NCBI GenBank assembly: GCA_016218805.1
Contig: JACRCW010000045.1
Span: forward strand, 1 to 23,178
Origin: Deltaproteobacteria bacterium
Lineage (GTDB): Bacteria; Myxococcota; JACRCW01
Direction of reading: 5' to 3'
Length of the DNA stretch: 23,178 nucleotides
Within the stretch, counting starts at the first letter, position 1; every line of letters starts with the position of its first letter. Shown here in pieces: positions 2,403-23,178 of this stretch. The notes under the pieces are model-generated. The model saw only the letters and a list, made by a program, of their open reading frames with translations. It ran no database searches and was not told where the DNA came from. Made by a program: the position numbers and the translations under genes.

Positions 2403-4862
2403 GTGCGCGTGGTCAGCACCCGCCGCATGCGGCAAGGAATCACCCGTACGCTGGTGCTCACCAACGCCGTGGCCACGCTGCTGATGCTGGCGGGCTACTT
2501 TGGCCTGGACCACATGCGGGACCGCGCCGGTGCGCTGCACGGCGCGCTGGTGGAGTTGGAGGCGGTGGGCGCCACGCTGGCCACCCAGCTGGACGGGGAC
2601 ATCATCACCCAGCTGGTGGAGACCTGGCCGGACGCCCACGCCGCCCGCGCGGACCCGGAACCGGAGGAGCTGCGCCGTGCGCGTGAACCGCTCCGGCTGG
2701 CCCTGGCCCGTGCGCGTGCCGTCCGTGACATCACGCTGGTCCGGCTGGCAGCGGAGGCGCGCGCCGGCGTGGAGGCGCGCCCCGCGGCACCGGCGTCCGG
2801 CGCGCTGGAGGTCCTGCTGGCCAGCGGCGAGAGGTCCCGCTGGGGGGACCGCGTGGACTACGCGCCGCCCATGGCCACCGCGCTGCTGGAGGGTTCGGTG
2901 GCGCACGTCACGGCACACCGCGGCGCCACCGGGTCCGTCATCTCCGCCATGGTGCCGCTGCTCAACAGCCGCGGGCAGGTGGTGGCCGCCGTGATGGTGG
3001 ACCGCCTGGAGGACGAAGCACTGGCTGACCTGACCGGCCTGCTGCGGGACCGCCTGCTGCTGCTGCTGGCCATGGCGCTGCTCAGCGTGCTGGTGGCGCT
3101 GGTGATGTCGCGGTGGATTGTGGAGCCGCTGCGGGAGTTGACCCGCCGCGCGGAACGCTTTGGCCGGGGCGAGGCGCAGCAGACCCTGGCGCTGGCGCGT
3201 GACGACGAGATTGGGCGGCTGTCACGCGTGCTGGACGGGGCCGCGCTGGAGCGGTCCCAGCGGGAGCGCCTGCTGGTGGATGCGCGTGACGAAGCCCTGC
3301 GTGCGAGCGCCGCGGCCGAGACGGCGCGGCAGGACGCGCTGGCAGCCAAAGACGCCGCGGAGACGGCCAACCGCGCCAAGAGCCAGTTCCTGGCCAACAT
3401 GAGCCATGAATTGCGCACGCCGCTCAATGCGATCATTGGCTATTCGGAGATGCTGCAGGATGAGCTGGAGGAGCTCTCCCCCGACGACGTGCGCGCCGAC
3501 CTCAAGAAGGTCCACGGTTCCGGGCGGCACCTGCTGGGCCTCATCAACGACATCCTGGACCTGTCCAAGATTGAGGCCGGGCGCATGGACCTCTATCTGG
3601 AGGACTTCAGCGTGACGCCGCTGCTGGAGGAGGTCCGCTCCACGGTGCAGCCGCTGGTGGAGAAGAACCAGAACACGCTGGTGCTGGAACCCGCAGACAA
3701 CCTGGGGCGCATGCACTCTGACGTCACCAAGCTTCGGCAGGTGCTGCTCAACCTGCTGTCCAACGCTGCCAAGTTCACGGAAAAGGGAACCCTCACGCTG
3801 CGCGCGCGGCGGGACGGTGACCGCGTGCAGTTTGCGGTGACGGACACCGGCATGGGCATGACGCCCGAACAGGTGGCGCGCGTGTTTGACGCATTTACCC
3901 AGGCGGACGCGTCCACCACCAGGAAGTTTGGCGGGACGGGCCTGGGGCTCACCATCACGCGGCATTTCTGCCGGATGCTGGGCGGCGAGGTGAAGGTGGA
4001 AAGCACGCCCGGGAAGGGGAGCACCTTCACCGTCACGCTGGCCGCTGAGGTGCGCCGGGAAGCCGGCGCGGCCACCCCCGCGACGTCCACCGCGCCTGCC
4101 GCGGGCAAGGGACCGTGTGTGCTGGTGATTGATGACGACCCCGGGGTGCATGACCTGATGGCGCGTTACCTGCGGCAGGAAGGGTACCGGACCGCGTTTG
4201 CCGGCAGCGGCCAGGACGGCCTGCGCCTGGCGCGCGAGCTGCTTCCCGACGTGATCACGCTGGACGTGATGATGCCCGGGCAGGACGGCTGGAGCGTGCT
4301 GGCGGCGCTCAAGGAGGACCCCGCGCTGGCGCACGTGCCGGTGATCATGCTGACCATGGTGCATGACCGCAGCCTGGGGTTTGCGCTGGGCGCGGCGGAT
4401 TACCTGACCAAGCCGGTGGAGCGCGCACGTCTGGTGGGCGTGTTGGCGCGCGTCCGCGGTGATGCGCCCGCGGATGTGCTGGTGGTGGAGGATGACCCGC
4501 AGGCGCGGGACATGCTGGTCAAACAGCTGGGCCGTGAGGGCTGCACCGTGCGCCAAGCTGCGGACGGCGTGGCCGCCCTGGAACTGCTGGCTGACCGCCG
4601 GCCCACGGTGATCCTGCTGGACCTGATGATGCCGCGCATGGACGGGTTTGAGTTGCTCTCCCGCCTGCAGGATGAGCCGCAATGGAAGGGGATTCCCGTG
4701 GTTGTGGTCACGGCCAAGGAGCTCACCGACGCGGACCGCGCGCGGCTGGAAGGGCGGGTGCGGGACGTGTTGCAGAAGGGCGCCTACGGGCGCGAAACGT
4801 TGCTCGCCCGGGTTCGCGAGCTTGCCCGGGGCGCCCGGGGCGCGGAGGTCGGGGATGGCTAG
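2403..4862 (+). CDS. Membrane hybrid sensor histidine kinase (TM-periplasmic sensor-TM-HAMP-HisKA-HATPase-REC-REC)
   Basis: H-box [19 protein letters not shown]-box [11 protein letters not shown]1 DTGMGM, G2 GGTGLGL; two receiver domains (LVIDDD...LDVMMP...KP and LVVEDD...LDLMMP). Start is GTG 2403 or ATG 2427. Confidence 0.95.
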
Positions 4863-5226
4863 AATTCTGCTCGTAGAGGACAATGAGATGAACCGGGACA
4901 TGCTGTCCCGCCGCCTCAAGCGCAAGGGCCACGACGTGGTCATGGCGGTGGATGGACAGCAGGGCGTGGACCTGGCGGTGAGCGAGCGCCCCGACCTGGT
5001 GCTGATGGACATGAGCCTGCCGGTGATGAACGGCTGGGACGCCACGCGCACGCTCAAGGCGCGGGAGGACACCCGGCGCATCCCCGTCATTGCGCTGACC
5101 GCGCATGCCATGAGCGGTGACCGTGACCAGGCGCTGGCAGCCGGGTGCGATGACTACGACACCAAGCCGGTGGAGCTGGACCGGTTGCTCGGGAAGATCC
5201 AGGTCCTGCTGGAGAAGAAGGCATGA
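4855..5226 (+). CDS. Single-domain response regulator (DivK/CheY-like)
   Basis: [21 protein letters not shown]...LMDMSLP...ALTAHAM...TKP; the ATG at 4855 overlaps the end of the kinase gene. Confidence 0.95.
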
Positions 5227-6647
5227 GTGAGGAGAAGGAATCCGGCAATCTCCTTGTCGTTGACGACAACGAGATGAACCGGGACATGCTGTCCCGCCGG
5301 CTGGAGCGCCGCGGGTTCACCGTGCTCACCGCTGAGGACGGGTACAAGGCGCTGGCGCTCATTGCGGAGAAGCCGTTTGACCTGGTGCTGCTGGACATCA
5401 TGATGCCCGGCATTGACGGCGTGGAGGTCCTCAAACGCCTGCGCGAGAAGTACACGCCGTCCGACCTGCCGGTCATCATGGTGACCGCCAAGGACAGTTC
5501 CGAAGACGTGGTGCAGGCGCTCAAGGTGGGCGCCAATGACTACGTCACCAAGCCCATTGATTTCCCGGTGGTGCTGGCCCGCACGACGACACAACTCACG
5601 CTCAAGCGCGCGCAGGAGCAGCTCAAGCAGAAGTCCGCGGAACTGGAGAAGCGCAACGCGTTCATTCGCAAGGTGTTTGGCCGCTACCTGACGGACCAGG
5701 TGGTGGACAGCCTGCTGGAGACACCGGAGGGGCTGGCGTTTGGCGGGGAGAAGCGCAAGGTCACCATCCTGATGAGTGACCTGCGCGGGTTCTCCTCCAT
5801 GTCCGAGCGGCTGGGCCCGGAGAAGGTGGTGCTGTTCCTCAACCACTACCTGGGCCTGATGGCGGAGGTGATCACCGGCTACCAGGGCACCATTGACGAG
5901 TTCATTGGCGACGCGGTGCTGGCGATCTTTGGCGCGCCGGTGCAGCGGCCGGATGACGCGGAGCGCGCGGTGGCGTGCGCGCTGGCCATGCAGCGCGCCA
6001 TGGAGCAGGTCAACGCCTTCAACCGTGAACACGGCGTGCCGGACGTGGAGATGGGCATTGGCATCAACACGGGCGAAGTGGTGGTGGGGAACATTGGGAG
6101 TGACAAGCGCGCCAAGTACGGCGTGGTGGGCAGCCACGTGAACCTGGCCGGGCGCATTGAAACGTATACGGTGGGCGGACAGGTGCTGGTGGCGGACACC
6201 ACCGCGGCAGAGGTGGGTGACCAGTTGCTCACGCGCCGCACGCTGAAGATGGAAGCCAAGGGCATGAAGGACCCCATCACGCTGCATGACGTGATGGGCC
6301 TGGGCGGCCGGCACAACCTCACGCTCCCGGACGACGAGGACCCGCCGCGCGCGCTGGCCATCCCGGTGGACGTGGGCGTGATCATCCTGGAAGGCAAGCA
6401 CCTCAGCGGGGCTCCCGCGCCCGGCCAGGTCCTGGCGCTGTCCCGGAAGTCCGCGTGGCTGGCCACAACGCCCGCGCCCGTGGCCACCGCCAACCTCAAG
6501 CTGCACTGGCACGCCGTGGCGGGCGGTCCCTCCGTGGGCGAGGCCTACGCCAAGGTCATGGACGTGGCCCCGGACGGACGGGCGCTCATCCGGTTCACGT
6601 CCGTGACGCCGGAAGTGACCGCGGCCATGACGCCGCTGCTGGAGTGA
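5223..6647 (+). CDS. REC domain fused to class III adenylate/guanylate cyclase (Cya2-like) with a C-terminal beta-rich domain
   Basis: N-terminal REC (VVDDNE...LDIMMP...TKP); cyclase motifs TILMSDLRGFS, IDEFIGDA and GNIGSDKRAKYGVVGSHVNLAGRIE; ATGA overlap with the upstream gene. Confidence 0.93.
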   Translation: MSEEKESGNLLVVDDNEMNRDMLSRRLERRGFTVLTAEDGYKALALIAEKPFDLVLLDIMMPGIDGVEVLKRLREKYTPSDLPVIMVTAKDSSEDVVQALKVGANDYVTKPIDFPVVLARTTTQLTLKRAQEQLKQKSAELEKRNAFIRKVFGRYLTDQVVDSLLETPEGLAFGGEKRKVTILMSDLRGFSSMSERLGPEKVVLFLNHYLGLMAEVITGYQGTIDEFIGDAVLAIFGAPVQRPDDAERAVACALAMQRAMEQVNAFNREHGVPDVEMGIGINTGEVVVGNIGSDKRAKYGVVGSHVNLAGRIETYTVGGQVLVADTTAAEVGDQLLTRRTLKMEAKGMKDPITLHDVMGLGGRHNLTLPDDEDPPRALAIPVDVGVIILEGKHLSGAPAPGQVLALSRKSAWLATTPAPVATANLKLHWHAVAGGPSVGEAYAKVMDVAPDGRALIRFTSVTPEVTAAMTPLLE

Positions 6648-11789: not shown

Positions 11790-14093
11790 TCAATCCGTGA
11801 TCCCGCCGAACAGATCCTGCAACCGCCGCGGGAGGGAGCGCAGCAGGGCCTCCATGCGGTCGGAGGGCTCGGCATGTACGGGGCAGGCGTCCAGCGGTTC
11901 CGCGCCGCGCCAGTAGACCTCGCGGTGGCGCGCGGGGCAGTGCGTGGTGGCGCGGTGACGGGACTCGTCGCAGATGTCCACGGCGGTCAGACCCGCGGGG
12001 ACGGGGTCTGCCGGCGGCGCGTCGTTCTTCCGGATGGCGTTCATCAGGTCCACCCAGATGGGCAGCGCGGCCTGCGCGCCGGTGAGCCCCGTGGGGACGG
12101 GCTGGTCCGCGCCCAGCCACACCACCGCCAGCAACTGCCCGTCCATCCCGGCAAACCACGCGTCGCGGGACTCGGTGGTGGTCCCGGTCTTGCCGCTGGC
12201 CGGGTGGTGGTAGCCCAGCGCCCGGGCCGCGCGCCCGGTGCCGCGCTCCAGCACGCCGCGCATCAGGTCGCGCACCAGGTAGGCCTCCTCGTCGGTGGCC
12301 ACCTCCACCGCGTCGGACGCGCCGTCCATCAGGACCCTCCCCTGCGCATCGCGCACGCGGCGCAGCATACGCGGCGGGACGTACGCTCCGTCGGCAAGTG
12401 CCGCGTAGGCCGCCGCCACCTCCAGCGGACTCATGTCAAACGCCCCCAGCACCAACGACGGCACCGGATCCAACCGACCCGCCAGCCCCAGTTGCCCCAG
12501 GAACTCCACCAGCCGGGGCAGCCCGACCTGCACGCCCACCCTCACGGTGGGCACGTTGAGCGACTGCTCCACCGCGTCACGCACGGTGATTTCGCCGTGG
12601 AACTTGCGGTCACTGTTGCGCGGTGACCACGGCTTCCCGCCCAGGGTGAGCGTGAGCGGTTCGTCGTCCAGCAGCGTGGTAGGCGCCAGCGACCGTCCGA
12701 GCAGGTGGAACGCCCCCAGGTACACCAGCGGCTTGAACACGCTGCCCGGCTGCCGCTTCCCGCGTGACGCGCGGTTGAACTGGCTGTCCGCGTAGGACCG
12801 CCCGCCCACCATGGCCAGCACGTTGCCGTGCGCGGGCTGCATGACCACCACGGCGCCTTCCAGCGGCACGCCCGCGCGCGCGTCCACCTTCTCCAAACCG
12901 CGCCGCAGCGCGTTTTCCGCGGCGCGCTGGATGCGCCCGTCCAGAGTGGTCTCCACGTGGAGACCCGCGCTGCGCAGTTCCACGCCGGGCACCACTTCGT
13001 TGATGAGGTCCACCAGGTCATCCACCGCCCACGGCGCCTGCCGTTGCACCGTCACCGTCGGGCGCACCCGTACCGGCGCGGCCACCGCCGCATCATGCTG
13101 CTTCCGGTTGATGCGGCCCTGTTCCAGCATCAGGTGCAGGACCACGTCCCGGCGGGTCCGGGCCTTCTCCGGGTGGCGGTCCGGCGCATACGCATTGGGC
13201 GCCCGGATCATGCCCGCCAGCAGCGCCGCTTCATCCAGCGTCAGCCGCGCGGGCTCCTTGGAAAAGTACGCCAGCGCCGCCTGTCCCACGCCGCAGATGG
13301 ACACGGACCCGTGCTGCCCCAGGTAGATCTCGTTGAGGTACAGCTCCAGGATGCGGTCCTTGGGATACGCGTCCTCCAGCGCCAGCGCAAAGAAGAGTTC
13401 CTTGAGCTTGCGTGACAGCGTCCGCTCCTGCGTGAGGAACATGTTCTTGGCCAGCTGTTGCGTGAGCGTGCTCCCGCCCTGGCGCGCGTCAGAGGTCACG
13501 TTGGTCAGCAGCGCGCGCGCCACGCCGCGCGGGTCCACGCCGTGGTGCTCGCGGAAGCGCCGGTCCTCCACGGCAATGACCGCGTCCTGCAGCGCCTGGG
13601 GAATGTCCTTGAGCGCCACCGGGCGGCGGCTCTCGCCTTCCGGCCCGCGAATCTCCGCCAGCGGCACACCCGGCACCACCGCGCGCGTGAGCGGCATGCC
13701 CTTGCGGCGCTTCAGTTCGGTGACCTTGCCGTCAACGTGCGAAAACTCAATGGCGTCACGCGGGACGTCCTCCAGCCCCGGCCATCCCGGCCGCGGCACC
13801 ACCACGGCGCGCTGCGCGCTGGCCAGCCCGAACTCGCCCGGCTGCACCGGGTTGGCCACGCGCTGGTAGCCCAGTCCGTCCAGCACGTCCGCCAGCGGGC
13901 CGGGCGGCAGCGTGGAGCCCGGCTTGAGCACCAGCGGCGCGGGGTGGATGCGCGTGGGCACCTCCCAGGGACCGTGCTCCACCCGTTCCACCACCAGCAC
14001 GCGCGCCCGCGCGTACACCGCCCACGCCACACCGGCGGCCAGCAGCGCCACGCCGCACAACACAATGAACGACCGCAGGAGCACGCGCCGCAT
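11790..14093 (-). CDS. mrcB: Class A penicillin-binding protein (PBP1b-like: TM, UB2H-like, transglycosylase, transpeptidase)
   Basis: TG motifs EDRRFREHHG, GGSTLTQQLAKN, RKLKE and KDRILELYLN; TP motifs SVFK, SLN and KTG. True start is ATG 14093 (MRRVLLRSF plus TM helix). Confidence 0.92.
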   Translation of the reverse strand: MRRVLLRSFIVLCGVALLAAGVAWAVYARARVLVVERVEHGPWEVPTRIHPAPLVLKPGSTLPPGPLADVLDGLGYQRVANPVQPGEFGLASAQRAVVVPRPGWPGLEDVPRDAIEFSHVDGKVTELKRRKGMPLTRAVVPGVPLAEIRGPEGESRRPVALKDIPQALQDAVIAVEDRRFREHHGVDPRGVARALLTNVTSDARQGGSTLTQQLAKNMFLTQERTLSRKLKELFFALALEDAYPKDRILELYLNEIYLGQHGSVSICGVGQAALAYFSKEPARLTLDEAALLAGMIRAPNAYAPDRHPEKARTRRDVVLHLMLEQGRINRKQHDAAVAAPVRVRPTVTVQRQAPWAVDDLVDLINEVVPGVELRSAGLHVETTLDGRIQRAAENALRRGLEKVDARAGVPLEGAVVVMQPAHGNVLAMVGGRSYADSQFNRASRGKRQPGSVFKPLVYLGAFHLLGRSLAPTTLLDDEPLTLTLGGKPWSPRNSDRKFHGEITVRDAVEQSLNVPTVRVGVQVGLPRLVEFLGQLGLAGRLDPVPSLVLGAFDMSPLEVAAAYAALADGAYVPPRMLRRVRDAQGRVLMDGASDAVEVATDEEAYLVRDLMRGVLERGTGRAARALGYHHPASGKTGTTTESRDAWFAGMDGQLLAVVWLGADQPVPTGLTGAQAALPIWVDLMNAIRKNDAPPADPVPAGLTAVDICDESRHRATTHCPARHREVYWRGAEPLDACPVHAEPSDRMEALLRSLPRRLQDLFGGITD

Positions 14094-14199: not shown

Positions 14200-15786
14200 A
14201 TGTCCATCCACAAGCCCACCGACGGAACCACGGCCAAGTCCAAGTCCGGCAAGGCGGGCGAATCCAAGCCGGCCGCGTCGCCTCCACCCGCCACCGGTGC
14301 CGTCAGCGACGATGCACTCCGGGGACCGGACCCGCACAAGAAGATTGCCGCCCGCAAACAGCTCACCGGCTCCGAGCAGAGCACCGGCGAGGCGTTTGTC
14401 AGCGCGCAGGGCACCAGCCTGCGGGCGCCGTCGGGCCCCGCGGCGCCGGTGTCCACCGGATCCATTGGCAAGGGACCGTTCCGGGGTTCACTTGACGAGC
14501 GCCAGGACGCGTTCACCAAGGCCGCGCGCAAGGAGGGCGTGTCCAGCGCCAGCGCGGAGAAGCTGTGGCGCATAGGCCCGGGCTGGAACGCGCGGGACCC
14601 GGTCACCGGCTTCCACGGCGAGGCCGACCGCGTCACGACGATGCAGCGTGCCACCGACACGGTGACCGCCAAGCGCGGCACGGCGGTGTACGTGCAGGCG
14701 GACATCCACAACCTCAGCGGGCTCAACCAGGCGCGCGGCGGCCCCGCCACCAACGACCACGTGCGCGCGGTCGCCGGCATCTTTGCCGACGAGCTTGGGA
14801 AGCTGGGCGGGCAGGTCACGCTGTTCCGCGGCAACGGCGGCCGGATGAGCGCCACGGTCACCGGCCGGGACGTCACCGCCGCCGAAGTTGACGGCGCCAT
14901 GACGCACGCGCAGACGCGCGTGGCCGCGTACGCGCGGGAGCACGGGCTGGACACCATTCCGCACCCGCTGGGCCGGACGCCGGGCCTTGGGCTGGAGGCG
15001 CGCGCCACGCAGATCCGTTCCAAGGACACCGTGGACCGCCTGGAGAAGGACACCAGCCTGACCACGGCGGCCGCCGTGAAACCGGACCACGCCGTTCCCC
15101 GCGCGGAACCGCTTGCGCTTGCGGAGGCCTCCCGGCCCGGCACGCCGGACACGGCGTTCAGGAATGCCATGGAGGTCCAGCGCGACGCGTTCAACGCCGA
15201 GTGCACGCGCAACCGGCTGTCCCCGCCACGCGCCCAGAAGCTGTGGGACGAGCATTCCGTCGGCAACCAGGACCCGGTGACGGGCCTGCTGCACGGCAGC
15301 TTCCGCGCGCCCACCGTGCAGTCCGCCATTGATCACGTGCGTGCCAACCCCGCAGACCACGGCGTGTATGTCGAAATGGACGTGGCCAACCTGGGTGGGC
15401 TCAACCGGGCGCTGGGCAAGCAGGGCGCGGATGATGTGTTCCGTTTCGCCTCCAAGACGGTGCAGGAGGAGCTGGCGCCGCTGGGGGGTTCACTGTCCAT
15501 GATCCGGCACGGCGGTGATGAGTTCAGCGCCGTGCTGGTGGGCCCCAAGGCCACCGCGGAGAACGTGCAGGACGCGCTCGGCCGCGCGCGGACCCGCATC
15601 AGCGCGTACACCAACGACCACGGCCTATCGGACATCCCGCACGCCAAGCATCCGGACGACGAGCGCCAGCGCGGCACGGGCGTGCACTTTGGCGTGGCAC
15701 AGCTCACCGCCCGGGACAGTCCCACCACCGTGTTTGACGCTGCCGATGCACGCGTGGTGCTGGACAAGATGCACGGAGGCCACTGA
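14200..15786 (+). CDS. Tandem GGDEF-like protein (degenerate domain 1, domain 2 with intact GGDEF) with disordered N-terminus
   Basis: Two repeats 225 aa apart: DPVTGF...YVQADIHNLSGLN...RGNGGRMS...HGLDTIPH and DPVTGL...YVEMDVANLGGLN...RHGGDEFS...HGLSDIPH. ATG at 14200. Confidence 0.85.
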   Translation: MSIHKPTDGTTAKSKSGKAGESKPAASPPPATGAVSDDALRGPDPHKKIAARKQLTGSEQSTGEAFVSAQGTSLRAPSGPAAPVSTGSIGKGPFRGSLDERQDAFTKAARKEGVSSASAEKLWRIGPGWNARDPVTGFHGEADRVTTMQRATDTVTAKRGTAVYVQADIHNLSGLNQARGGPATNDHVRAVAGIFADELGKLGGQVTLFRGNGGRMSATVTGRDVTAAEVDGAMTHAQTRVAAYAREHGLDTIPHPLGRTPGLGLEARATQIRSKDTVDRLEKDTSLTTAAAVKPDHAVPRAEPLALAEASRPGTPDTAFRNAMEVQRDAFNAECTRNRLSPPRAQKLWDEHSVGNQDPVTGLLHGSFRAPTVQSAIDHVRANPADHGVYVEMDVANLGGLNRALGKQGADDVFRFASKTVQEELAPLGGSLSMIRHGGDEFSAVLVGPKATAENVQDALGRARTRISAYTNDHGLSDIPHAKHPDDERQRGTGVHFGVAQLTARDSPTTVFDAADARVVLDKMHGGH

Positions 15787-15941
15787 TGTCGCTCGAAGAC
15801 CGCCTGGCCCGCCTGGGGCTGGCCCACCTCATCAACAAACCGGAAGAGTTGGAGAAGGCGCTGGCCAAGCTGGAGAAGGAACGGCGCGTGGCGGAGCAGG
15901 AGAAGCCCGCCGCGGCGCCCGCACCCAAGAAGCGGCGCTGA
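15786..15941 (+). CDS. 51-aa small helical protein translationally coupled to the GGDEF-like gene
   Basis: TGATG overlap; MSLEDRLARLGLAHLINKPEELEKALAKLEKERRVAEQEKPAAAPAPKKRR; GC3-rich codons; below the ORF-track cutoff. Confidence 0.75.
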   Translation: MSLEDRLARLGLAHLINKPEELEKALAKLEKERRVAEQEKPAAAPAPKKRR

Positions 15942-15951
15942 CCGGGTACGC

Positions 15952-16485
15952 TCACGCCGGCGGCGCGGGCCGGGCAAGGAACGCCGCCACGTGCGCGGTC
16001 AACCGCTCCACGTCACCCGCGCTCATCCAGGGATTGTGCAGGTGCCGCCGGAGCTCCGCCTCCGTCATGCCCAGCCGGCGCCCCTCCTCCACGGCCACCG
16101 CGTAGCCCTCAATCTCCGTCGGGCGGTCCACGTACGCAAACCGGGCGTCCCACAGGTCCGCGCCCTCGGACAGCTGCCGCAGGTGTGTGAGCTCGTGCAG
16201 CATGTCCAGGTACAGGTCCCGGTGCGTGCCCGTCTTCAGGTACAGCCAGCTGAGCTCAATGCACGGGATGCGCGTGTTGATCCACGCAAATCCGGGAACC
16301 GGCAGCACCCGCACACGGGCTGCTTCAACGAGCTTTGCGCGCACCTCGGGGTCGCGCGCCACGCGCAGAAGCGCGGGTGATTCGCGCACGCGCGGGAACA
16401 CCTCCAGGTAGCGGTGCTTTCCCAGCCCCACGCCGCGGCACAGGCGCGCGTACTCCGGCACTGCGCGGTGGTCCTGCGCCGTCAC
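15952..16485 (-). CDS. Putative zincin-like metallopeptidase (HExxH)
   Basis: LDMLHELTHLRQ with downstream PTEIEGY providing a candidate third ligand; the GTG start overlaps the upstream stop (GTGA). Confidence 0.7.
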   Translation of the reverse strand: MTAQDHRAVPEYARLCRGVGLGKHRYLEVFPRVRESPALLRVARDPEVRAKLVEAARVRVLPVPGFAWINTRIPCIELSWLYLKTGTHRDLYLDMLHELTHLRQLSEGADLWDARFAYVDRPTEIEGYAVAVEEGRRLGMTEAELRRHLHNPWMSAGDVERLTAHVAAFLARPAPPA

Positions 16486-21556: not shown

Positions 21557-22198
21557 TCAGCCGACGCGTTCCACCTGCGTGAACTCCAGCTCCACGGGCG
21601 TGGGCCGGCCAAAGATGCTGACGGTGACGCGCAGCTTGTTCTTCTCCGGCTTCACCTCTTCCACGGTGCCGGTGAAGTTGGCAAACGGCCCCTCCGTCAC
21701 GCGCACGGTGTTGCCCTCTTCAAAGACAACGCGCGGCTTGGGCTTGAGGACGCCCTCGGTCATCTGGCTGGTGAGCCGGGCAATTTCCTCGTCCCGCATG
21801 GCGGGCGGGTTGGTGTCGCTGGAGCCGACAAAACCGGTGACCTTGGGGGTGTTCTTCACCGCGTGGAAACTGCGGTCATTGAGCACCATCTGCACCAGGA
21901 TGTACCCGGGCATGCTCTTGCGCTTGGTGGTCCGCTTGGCGCCGCGCACGGTCTCCTGCACGGTCTCCGTAGGCACCAGGATGTCACCAAACAGTTCCTG
22001 CAGGCTCTCCAGGCGGATGCGGTCCTCCAGCCCCTTCTTGGCCTTGTTCTCGTAGCCGCTGTACGTGCGGACCGCGTACCACTTGAGCTTGCCGGCCTTG
22101 GCGGGCACGCCCTCGGCGGTGGCGGCGGGCGCCGGCACCGCGCCTTCCTGGACGGGTGCGGTGGCCTGCTGCGGTTCGTTCTCGCCGGTTGCGCTCAT
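21557..22198 (-). CDS. nusG: Transcription termination/antitermination factor NusG
   Basis: [34 protein letters not shown] motif [13 protein letters not shown] and [18 protein letters not shown]. Confidence 0.98.
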
Positions 22199-22217
22199 CT
22201 GCCTTGCCTCTGCTCTT

Positions 22218-22595
22218 TCAGAAGATGCGGTTGATCACCCAGTTGAATCCCAGATCAAAGAACCCGAGCACCAGGCTCACCACCACGCTGGTCACAATGA
22301 CCACCAACGTGGCCGCGCGCGTCTCCTCGCCCGTGGGCCAGGTGACCTTCTTGAGCTCGGCCACCACTTCATGGGCCATGGGGTTCACGGTGGCGTTGCG
22401 CCACAGCAGGAACCCCGTCCCAAAGCTCACCGCCGCGGCAATGAGGGTGGTCAGGGTGAAGCGGTCCCCCAGGATGGGCGTGTCAATGATGCCCAGGTTG
22501 AGGAACACCCAGTGCAGCGTGTGGGACAGCACAAAGCTGACGGCCAGCGACAGGAAGATGAAACCCAGCGCAACCAGACTGCCGACGGACTGCAT
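22218..22595 (-). CDS. secE: Preprotein translocase subunit SecE (3-TM form)
   Basis: ELKKVTWPT.EET motif followed by a TM helix; located between tRNA-Trp and nusG. Confidence 0.95.
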   Translation of the reverse strand: MQSVGSLVALGFIFLSLAVSFVLSHTLHWVFLNLGIIDTPILGDRFTLTTLIAAAVSFGTGFLLWRNATVNPMAHEVVAELKKVTWPTGEETRAATLVVIVTSVVVSLVLGFFDLGFNWVINRIF

Positions 22596-22643
22596 GCCAA
22601 CTTCCTTTCCGTGCGCGCCGCGCGGGGGCGGCTGGAGAAAAGC

Positions 22644-22719
22644 TGGCAGGACGGGAGGGGATCGAACCCCCAGCCTGCGGTTTTGGAGACCGCTGCTCTA
22701 CCAGTTGAGCTACCGTCCT
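22644..22719 (-). tRNA. tRNA-Trp (CCA)
   Basis: AGGACGGTAGCTCAACTGGTAGAGCAGCGGTCTCCAAAACCGCAGGCTGGGGGTTCGATCCCCTCCCGTCCTGCCA; 76 nt cloverleaf, anticodon CCA, encoded 3' CCA. Confidence 0.98.
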
Positions 22720-22743
22720 GCGTCTTTCCAAAGGCACGCTTTG

Positions 22744-22766
22744 CCCCGGCCCTTCACCGGCCGGGG
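22744..22766. other. GC-rich hairpin between rpmG and tRNA-Trp
   Basis: CCCCGGCC, a 7-nt loop, then GGCCGGGG. Confidence 0.4.
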
Positions 22767-22773
22767 ACGTCCA

Positions 22774-22929
22774 TCACTTCTTGGTCTCCTTGTGCTCCTG
22801 GTGCTTCTTGCACCATGAGCAGTACTTCTTGAGCACAAGCTTGTCGGTCTTGCGCTTTTCCGGCTTGGTCGTCGCATAGTTGCGCCGCTTGCAGGTGGCG
22901 CATTCCATCAGGACCACGACGTACGGCAT
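22774..22929 (-). CDS. rpmG: 50S ribosomal protein L33 (zinc-ribbon C+ form)
   Basis: [60 protein letters not shown]; canonical position between tuf and tRNA-Trp. Not in the ORF track. Confidence 0.95.
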
Positions 22930-22955
22930 GGGTCCATCTCCTCATCACACAGCGC

Positions 22956-22998
22956 CGCGGGTCCCGCGCGCCCACCCTCGGGCGGTGCGGGGTCCGCG
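22956..22998. other. Imperfect GC-rich hairpin between tuf and rpmG
   Basis: cgcgggtcccgc gcgccc accctc gggcg gt gcggggtccgcg forms a long imperfect stem. Confidence 0.4.
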
Positions 22999-23012
22999 AA
23001 CTAAGGGAAACC

Positions 23013-23178
23013 TCACTCCAACACTTCGGCCACAACCCCGGCGCCCACGGTCCGGCCACCCTCACGGATGGCAAACCGCAGCTCCTTCTCCATGGCCACC
23101 GGCGTGATCAACTCAACCGTCACGGTCACGTTGTCACCCGGCATCACCATCTCCGTGCCCGTGGGCAGCGTGCAGCTC
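23013..23178 (-). CDS. tuf: Elongation factor Tu, 3' end (partial)
   Basis: ...[48 protein letters not shown] with TGA at 23015-23013. Confidence 0.98.

Follow-up and report, generated by a model that had tools for sequence, protein, structure and literature searches.

What does a gene encode that carries two GGDEF-like domains in one chain, one of them degenerate, and no sensor domain? Such a gene (14200-15786, forward strand) occurs in the 23,178-nucleotide stretch of contig JACRCW010000045.1 from a Deltaproteobacteria bacterium of the Myxococcota (GCA_016218805.1), which was analysed as a whole and is hereafter called the window. The feature proved larger than first noted, and is a two-gene module made of a divergent GGDEF-fold enzyme (P0001, 528 residues) and a cognate small protein (P0002, 51 residues). 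The initial annotation had delimited the enzyme open reading frame (ORF) correctly, but stopped at the start codon of the coupled second gene (15786-15941), which was overlooked. The reading that we favour, to which we give an even chance, is that the pair represents a nucleotide-synthesising conflict effector and its immunity protein.

The enzyme ORF has no internal stop, features a coding-type bias in the GC content of the three codon positions (0.70/0.54/0.89) and is found in one copy in the host genome. A longer version starting at 13912 was dismissed, as it overlaps the PBP1b-type gene on the opposite strand. The annotated internal duplication with a period of 675 nt was confirmed: DPVTG occurs at 14596 and again at 15271, and the halves are 35% identical over 189 residues (E 1e-31). 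The variant motifs described at the outset (DIHNLSGLN/DVANLGGLN and HGLDTIPH/HGLSDIPH) are present, as are the intact GGDEF motif of domain 2 (residues 438-442, 15511-15525) and the degenerate RGNGGRM of domain 1 (residues 210-216), which replaces RHGGDEF. Domain 2 has the metal Asp (D394), N397, N402, D411, R436, an insertion including H481 and K483, and the terminal K523, while G399 replaces, as claimed, the Lys conserved in 21 canonical GGDEF domains of the same genome. Domain 1 retains D168, N171, N176, N185 and R210 but has NGGRM at the GG[DE]EF site, and its terminal Lys is gone. The base-reading positions are thus occupied by N402 and D411 in domain 2 and by N176 and N185 in domain 1. 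The N-terminus, initially described as about 95 disordered residues, spans 93 residues rich in A, S, G, P and K; these residues were not part of the models, and the call of disorder is drawn from their composition.

Structural modelling revealed that both halves adopt the GGDEF fold. An AlphaFold2 model of residues 90-528, obtained from an alignment of 54 sequences (predicted local distance difference test score, pLDDT, 91.5; predicted template modelling score, pTM, 0.87), features an identical topology twice, joined by a disordered linker (residues 290-314). All top fold matches are diguanylate cyclases. Domain 2 aligns with 5euh at Z 19.8 (root-mean-square deviation, rmsd, 2.1 A, 154 aligned residues), the best diguanylate cyclases reaching about 20 (19.9) and class III cyclases about 10. 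Domain 1, modelled alone from an alignment of intact single-domain relatives (pLDDT 95.4), also aligns with 5euh (Z 16.3, rmsd 2.0 A, 146 residues) and with further GGDEF structures at Z 16.3-16.4, which bears out the proposal that the degenerate half has the same fold. The special kinship with Cas10 that had been suggested gained no support from the fold searches. The Cas10/Csm1 structure 6ifk ranks 47th among the matches of domain 1 (Z 7.6 vs 16 for GGDEF; rmsd 3.3 A, 123 aligned residues), and Cas10 is absent among the 50 matches listed for the two-domain model. In the models the fold is much nearer GGDEF than Cas10, with which the resemblance appears to be one of layout alone. Neither mCpol nor Thg1 is among the matches listed in the fold searches. 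Aligned over both domains, the model matches the one-chain C1/C2 adenylyl cyclase 6r3q over 279 residues with a middling score (Z 8.8, rmsd 6.5 A). Sequence searches of solved structures gave a similar picture: a single query retrieved weak GGDEF matches only (best E 0.086), whereas a profile search retrieved GGDEF-domain proteins in 44 of the 46 sequences listed, with neither Cas10 nor mCpol among them. The top matches in a viral fold library are ordinary phage GGDEF proteins.

The enzyme belongs to a family with a distinct signature, which includes a two-helix N-terminal extension, the motifs D(P)VTGF, DxxNLGGLN and R[HT]GGDE, an HPK insertion, G[TV]G and a terminal Lys. Compared with canonical GGDEF domains, for which 21 of the 25 other GGDEF matches in the host genome served as reference, the NR turn, the Lys of DxDxFK, the RxxD site, the C-terminal Arg and the GRN motif are missing. 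We take K332 of PleD to be the transition-state Lys and N335 and D344 to be the guanine-reading residues, and we rely on this numbering and on these roles in naming the corresponding positions.

Could the enzyme be an ordinary diguanylate cyclase, in which domain 2 of two chains makes c-di-GMP and domain 1 is regulatory or nucleotide-binding? Both halves share the fold of GGDEF diguanylate cyclases (PF00990; WspR 3i5c/3bre, GcbC 5euh, PleD 1w25), and domain 2 shares with them the first Asp, the Asn, the second Asp, the R-x-GG[DE]EF motif and the terminal Lys. Only domain 2 passes the Pfam cut-off for PF00990 (39.5 bits vs 23.8), and other tandems of active and degenerate GGDEF domains provide a precedent. 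The retained N402 and D411 also fit this view, as Asn favours guanine in the available part of the Panoptes paper (PMC12657218). In contrast, diguanylate cyclases have DxDxFKxxND where the enzyme has DxxNLGGLN; the conserved Lys, the NR turn, the RxxD site and the C-terminal Arg (R446) are all absent; and the TIGR00254 score is 24.4, below the cut-off of 37.4. Moreover, diguanylate cyclases lack the two-helix extension, the HPK insertion, the pairing of an active and a dead half in one chain and the cognate small gene, and the enzyme has no dimerising sensor. The dead halves of related tandems keep selected active-site residues whichever side is dead (see below). An ordinary diguanylate cyclase is, on balance, improbable.

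Other palm-type nucleotide synthases resemble the enzyme in part. In Cas10/Csm1 (Palm1-Palm2), too, a single chain contains an active and a degenerate palm; its donor and acceptor sites are asymmetric, and bonds are formed one step at a time (available part of PMC12657230). The enzyme has no further Cas10 domains, and its two domains fill residues 94-528. Like the enzyme, mCpol and OptS of Panoptes are sensor-less palm nucleotide synthases found in conflict systems, and OptS is constitutive. Pfam searches retrieved no mCpol match, PF00990 being the only family at E<=1; moreover, a membrane toxin is restrained by OptS, a symmetric oligomer, while the enzyme itself would be the cargo here and has, instead of a linked 2TM effector, a soluble 51-residue peptide next to it. 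Hypr GGDEF proteins (GacA) share the fold and a possible output other than c-di-GMP, but carry Ser/Thr at the base-reading position, according to the available part of PMC6456294, where the enzyme has D411 and N185. Class III adenylyl cyclases, as C1/C2 pseudo-heterodimers (6r3q), share duplication followed by loss of one catalytic centre; their fold match is far weaker than that of GGDEF proteins, and class III motifs are absent from the enzyme. By fold the enzyme belongs to the GGDEF superfamily; canonical diguanylate cyclases, Cas10, mCpol and Hypr proteins each have features that were tested and that it lacks.

The asymmetry of the two halves could be analysed because relatives are numerous. 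A first search retrieved 7 proteins, including P0001; a six-sequence profile was then run against 1.84 billion representatives, and identified 283 of them at E<=1e-30 and 642 at 1e-10. The set analysed comprises 154 proteins (150 listed and four earlier matches), of which 74 are tandems with two copies of more than 60 bits each and 80 are singles, a few of the latter being fragments or carrying a weaker second copy. Exactly one half is intact in 59 of the 74 tandems, and the dead half may be on either side: domain 1 is degenerate in 46 and domain 2 in 13, while both halves are intact in 14 and neither in one. The 59 dead halves decay selectively. The residues equivalent to N397, N402, R436 and D/N411 are kept in 52, 56, 52 and 56 of them, respectively, and H481 and K483 in 36 each. 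In contrast, D394, D440, E441 and K523 are seldom kept (13, 7, 8 and 8, respectively, with 16 gaps at K523), while K523 is retained in 57 of the 59 intact partner halves. Dead halves, in other words, retain base-binding residues and lose metal and general-base residues, a pattern that fits one composite site.

In GGDEF enzymes, the fourth-residue Glu acts as a base on the nucleoside triphosphate (NTP) held by the other monomer (Hallberg 2019, available part of PMC6456294). Because the base sits on the partner monomer, an acceptor half would need only the base-binding residues that are kept. We infer from the conservation pattern that the intact half holds the donor and activates the acceptor, which is held by the dead half; this assignment matches the data whichever side is dead. 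The pseudo-dimeric pairing of an active and an inactive half, as annotated at first, gains ground to this extent, and the two-domain model is confident as a unit. While symmetric sites yield a cyclic dinucleotide, Cas10 has asymmetric donor and acceptor sites, as described in the available part of the mCpol paper (PMC12657230).

The tandems do not appear to descend from a single fusion. In a FastTree tree with a midpoint root, built from 173 sequences (tandem halves and every third single, 2 sequences having been dropped for gaps), a half has its own other half as first or second nearest neighbour in 11 of 72 tandems, and 8 of these 11 are double-intact. This suggests, as far as the sequences tell, that duplication took place repeatedly and that one catalytic centre was then lost, although the clustering of dead halves in the tree may be due to long-branch attraction. 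The layout would be convergent with that of Cas10, since the tandem seems to have arisen repeatedly within the family. The recurrent loss of activity from one of two initially active halves has parallels in Cas10 and adenylyl cyclases, and a new nucleotide product may result from it.

As to the product, position 411 is occupied by Asn in 55 and by Asp in 24 of the 80 singles among the sequences analysed. An interpretation of Asn at this position as adenine-favouring was dropped, since the available part of PMC12657218 ties Asn to guanine, and for the same reason the product would most likely contain guanine. We propose an enzyme with neither sensor nor feedback site, in which a single working site is created as one half closes on the other. 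Domain 2 would bind a donor NTP with two metals and provide the general base, whereas domain 1 would merely hold the acceptor nucleoside, the 3'-OH of which would attack. A single bond would be formed per cycle, and the product might be a linear dinucleotide, an oligomer or a cyclic compound made stepwise. In a target cell, such an activity could drain NTPs or jam nucleotide signalling.

The loss of triphosphate- and metal-binding residues from dead halves that keep base-binding ones also implies that the acceptor need not be an NTP. Asymmetric members might therefore add nucleotides to an RNA end, for instance that of a tRNA, the degenerate half holding the terminal nucleoside. The palms of GGDEF, Cas10 and Thg1 proteins are related (available part of PMC12657218), and Thg1 polymerases act on tRNA. 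Yet the enzyme has no RNA-binding domain, and both the singles and the double-intact members look like symmetric dinucleotide cyclases. Thg1 is not among the 50 fold matches listed, and neither is an RNA-holding protein among the matches listed, which has no bearing either way. RNA-end transfer strikes us as very improbable.

Where relatives of the enzyme are found argues for an effector role of the family, in line with the original suggestion, which holds at the family level. Relatives are carried by cargo proteins with the eCIS_core domain of extracellular contractile injection systems (eCIS), by giant multi-enzyme proteins and by phage proteins of the ejection type. A scan of 21 large tandem proteins identified eCIS_core in 3, Fic in 5, NUDIX in 2 and LPD1/5/39 with a pyrophosphatase domain in one, while 3 match no family; 13 further proteins carry helicase, Acb1-like, LPD, ART-PolyVal, LysM or peptidase-like domains, 3 of them being devoid of any. 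Singles of about 820 residues match phrog_1145, the transglycosylase phrog_4067 and phrog_315, and we read these phage carriers as ejection proteins on the basis of size, gene order and muralytic domains. Phage proteins bearing LPD or ART-PolyVal domains contain single copies as well. PHROGs holds no family specific to the GGDEF-fold domain, and tblastn searches of annotated GenBank phages gave no match. The 30 genome loci belong to Proteobacteria, Cyanobacteria, Actinobacteria, Chloroflexi, Chlamydiae, Planctomycetes, Myxococcota and other groups. A domain scan covering 78 of the 200 ORFs called at these loci placed the Nostoc copy (L015) in an eCIS operon, behind Pvc16_N and AAA ATPase genes, and eCIS_core is also present in the carriers of L012 and L028. 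The spread is patchy, as the family occurs in 4 of the 61 genomes searched, the host included. The domain is shuffled between several kinds of delivery protein: those with eCIS_core, those with LPD domains, ejection-type phage proteins and giant multi-enzyme proteins.

Some carriers have features of their own. In P0032, P0065 and P0125, which are polyvalent proteins, the domain is in one chain with an inorganic pyrophosphatase domain, which would pull a pyrophosphate-releasing reaction; P0059 additionally bears an Acb1-like domain. The tandems P0048 and P0121 start with a hydrophobic, signal-peptide-like stretch, which is odd for a cytoplasmic nucleotide enzyme.

GGDEF domains are usually read as signalling enzymes, and their occurrence in phage polyvalent proteins has been noted only in passing. 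GGDEF domains were reported in giant phage and prophage polyvalent proteins along with LPD and ART domains, and interference with host nucleotide signalling was proposed (Iyer et al. 2017, PMC5512222); the available part of that report describes neither the subfamily motif nor asymmetric tandems, eCIS cargo or a nested partner. The available part of PMC7159879 treats other systems. In the literature searched, mostly at abstract level and with few subscription papers, we found no description of the subfamily, of the one-site tandem or of an overprinted partner, and to that extent the subfamily is not previously described.

Polymorphic toxin/immunity pairs, and nucleotide-synthesising toxins such as Tas1, are likewise characterised by a domain shuffled among delivery proteins, a small gene downstream and orphan copies of the latter. 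Here the fold is another one, and in phages the small gene is overprinted within the carrier gene. In the window, the partner gene overlaps the enzyme stop codon (TGATG), is preceded by GGAGG and has a GC content of 0.76/0.41/0.90 across codon positions; the encoded protein has no membrane segment. Pfam yielded no match for P0002 and scattered single matches among 26 partner members, and Atlas no usable match. A protein database search identified 13 homologues, P0002 included, and homologues are located behind the enzyme in Duganella, Nostoc, Tumidithrix, Rheinheimera and a Myxococcota metagenome-assembled genome.

In phages where a long ORF encloses the domain, the partner homologue is found in the +1 frame, just past the terminal Lys. 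This was assessed with a held-out profile made from six free-standing bacterial copies, which was run on 6,549 segments including 24 distinct viral loci identified by the enzyme alone. The profile matches 16 of the 24 loci at E<1e-4, always directly behind the domain, and weaker matches are present at the same spot in 5 more (E 0.056 to 14); L062 and L063 have no partner match at the expected nested position. All 28 matches inside a host ORF are in the +1 frame, in a set that includes profile seeds and pattern-found loci. A ribosome-binding motif precedes 18 of 20 nested starts but only 72 of 684 control starts. Over codons 2-16 of 20 nested copies, identity is 56% in the +1 frame and 28% in the host frame, the former value being inflated by similarity-based choice. 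A strict footprint in the host frame behind the domain is detected in 12 of 50 single-domain proteins and in 3 of 1,279 control windows. As the nested copies come with a start and a ribosome-binding motif of their own, no programmed frameshift into the partner has to be invoked, though one may occur. A conserved partner overprinted in this manner escapes annotation within phage ejection genes, and suggests how a phage may package an enzyme harmful to the cell that builds it.

Two nested arrangements depart from the common one. At L004 (8539-8763), an unrelated 75-residue +1 ORF with a ribosome-binding motif occupies the nested spot, possibly as a member of a second partner family. In the phage tandem L068 (minus strand), the +1 partner ORF, at 2362-2544 of that locus, is nested between the degenerate first and the intact second half.

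A reverse search with a partner DNA pattern gave 41 matches, of which 8 were judged non-homologous; of the remainder, 23 are placed immediately after the domain, while 10 stand next to unrelated genes as orphans, duplicates being included in both counts. The orphans (L074, L075, L078, L082, L084, L085, L086, L091, L101 and L104) have upstream ORFs that, where present, are unrelated. They could protect their hosts from injected enzyme. For the pair in the window, we suppose that the translationally coupled 51-residue protein binds and silences the enzyme in the producer cell. Complex prediction lends weak support to binding: the score is 0.33 vs 0.00 for the best control, contact agreement is at least 68% and partner pLDDT at least 74. 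This mark was attained by 116 of the 157 solved pairs and by 2 of the 215 mismatched ones, but only 18 of the solved pairs, and both mismatches, did so with a score of 0.60 or less.

Several observations weigh against the effector reading. The transition-state Lys, replaced by G399, and the C-terminal Arg are missing, and activity would hang on the HPK insertion as a substitute. The base-reading residues suit GTP, and the product could be plain c-di-GMP. All 80 singles have the Asp and GG[DE]E, a count biased by a search that ranks intact domains first. The partner is found at 7 of the 30 enzyme-found genome loci only; 21 are without it and 2 end at a contig edge, so that many producers have the enzyme without this antidote. 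Partner-less loci include three Streptomycetaceae and two Chlamydiales tandems, as well as six stand-alone singles of about 245 residues in Gammaproteobacteria (L007-L010, L014 and L021). Two Woeseiaceae-type loci scanned adjoin pyrB (L008 and L010), and L008 lies beside a PilT-type ATPase gene; these gammaproteobacterial singles look domesticated. In a related genome (G017), six matches lie on five contigs in very long ORFs, and L107, L110, L113 and L115 show no partner.

The small protein may also be something other than an inhibitor. In P0039, a partner sequence is fused in frame behind the tandem (E 3e-5), as perhaps in P0024 (E 0.13), which an activator, chaperone or structural subunit would fit equally well, and the weak predicted binding gives no sign of its effect. 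Nevertheless, catalytically complete enzymes without a partner at 21 of 30 loci indicate that it is hardly essential, and the tail of P0039 retains its own Met and may be translated separately. The orphan copies also speak against a subunit, since orphan immunity genes occur beside unrelated genes. We regard a supporting role as rather unlikely, and a shade less so than an ordinary diguanylate cyclase.

A further objection concerns export. P0001 has no recognisable delivery domain, signal peptide or LQRxxGN/eCIS motif. In the 92% complete host genome, Pvc16_N gave no match, being also silent in control genomes, and neither did VipB, a marker of type VI secretion systems. The sole FHIPEP gene was rejected as an injectisome component, as the surrounding ORFs, the gene names of which are presumed from their sequences, read as those of a flagellar cluster. 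Along with a coupled gene pair lying amid unrelated genes and the existence of partner-less stand-alone copies, these data would suit a resident cytoplasmic module that is not exported, be it a type II toxin-antitoxin system, a unit serving defence, or a signalling enzyme that has been domesticated and has a small regulator. Against this, effectors often begin with a low-complexity, non-hydrophobic stretch, and many tandem relatives without a named delivery domain begin likewise, as judged by eye; moreover, the genome is 92% complete, export might take predatory or other routes, and the family is elsewhere fused to delivery proteins. We hold a resident module to be unlikely, though less so than the two preceding alternatives.

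If the enzyme and its partner are an effector and its immunity protein, a defined GGDEF subfamily acts as toxin domains do, in company with a cognate partner, and its chemistry can be tested through one small gene pair. More broadly, the family may comprise widespread, injected nucleotide-polymerising weapons that phage virions, contractile injection systems and giant bacterial effectors have in common. Phage singles would make a cyclic dinucleotide on entry, disturbing host signalling or defence; one-site tandems would make linear or oligomeric nucleotides or modified RNA ends; and an antidote of 50-60 residues, encoded in the +1 frame within the phage ejection gene, would silence the enzyme during virion assembly and until injection. 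Taken jointly, these claims are tentative, and we would sooner expect one of them to fail than all to hold.

Table 1 Coordinates of the two-gene module in the window
Feature	Coordinates	Strand	Basis or remark
Tandem GGDEF-fold protein P0001, 528 aa	14200..15786	+	ORF translation, Pfam, self-alignment, model
Low-complexity N-terminus, residues 1-93	14200..14478	+	Composition; no Sec-type hydrophobic stretch, eCIS-core domain or genomic paralogue; export function only putative
Domain 1, about residues 94-289: two-helix extension and degenerate GGDEF fold	14479..15066	+	Putative acceptor-binding half
Linker, residues 290-314, disordered	15067..15141	+	Model (pLDDT <50)
Domain 2, residues 315-528: intact half	15142..15783	+	Putative donor-binding, metal-binding half
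GGAGG ribosome-binding site within the enzyme gene end, 5' of the TGATG stop/start overlap	15775..15779	+	Sequence
Partner protein P0002, 51 aa, candidate inhibitor/immunity protein	15786..15941	+	Motif MSxExRLxRLGLxHL; no Pfam family

The surroundings of the gene pair were also analysed. No promoter-like site was found near it, a single terminator-like site is as expected by chance, and Rfam gave no match near the enzyme gene. The flanking genes scanned encode a PBP1b-type, an HExxH and a CsgG-like protein, and no cas genes are nearby. The PBP1b-type transglycosylase/transpeptidase gene (11790-14093, minus strand) is divergent from the enzyme gene, with a gap of about 100 nt. A 177-residue ORF (15952-16485, minus strand) is convergent on the partner gene; it contains an HELTH (HExxH-type) motif and matches nothing in Pfam or NCBIfam. 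Further upstream (2403-6647, plus strand) lie, in series, ORFs that we take to encode a histidine kinase, a response regulator and a receiver-class III cyclase-like protein. At the other end of the window (21557-23074, minus strand), a tRNA-Trp gene (22644-22719) lies beside ORFs that are presumably nusG, secE and an rpmG-like gene.

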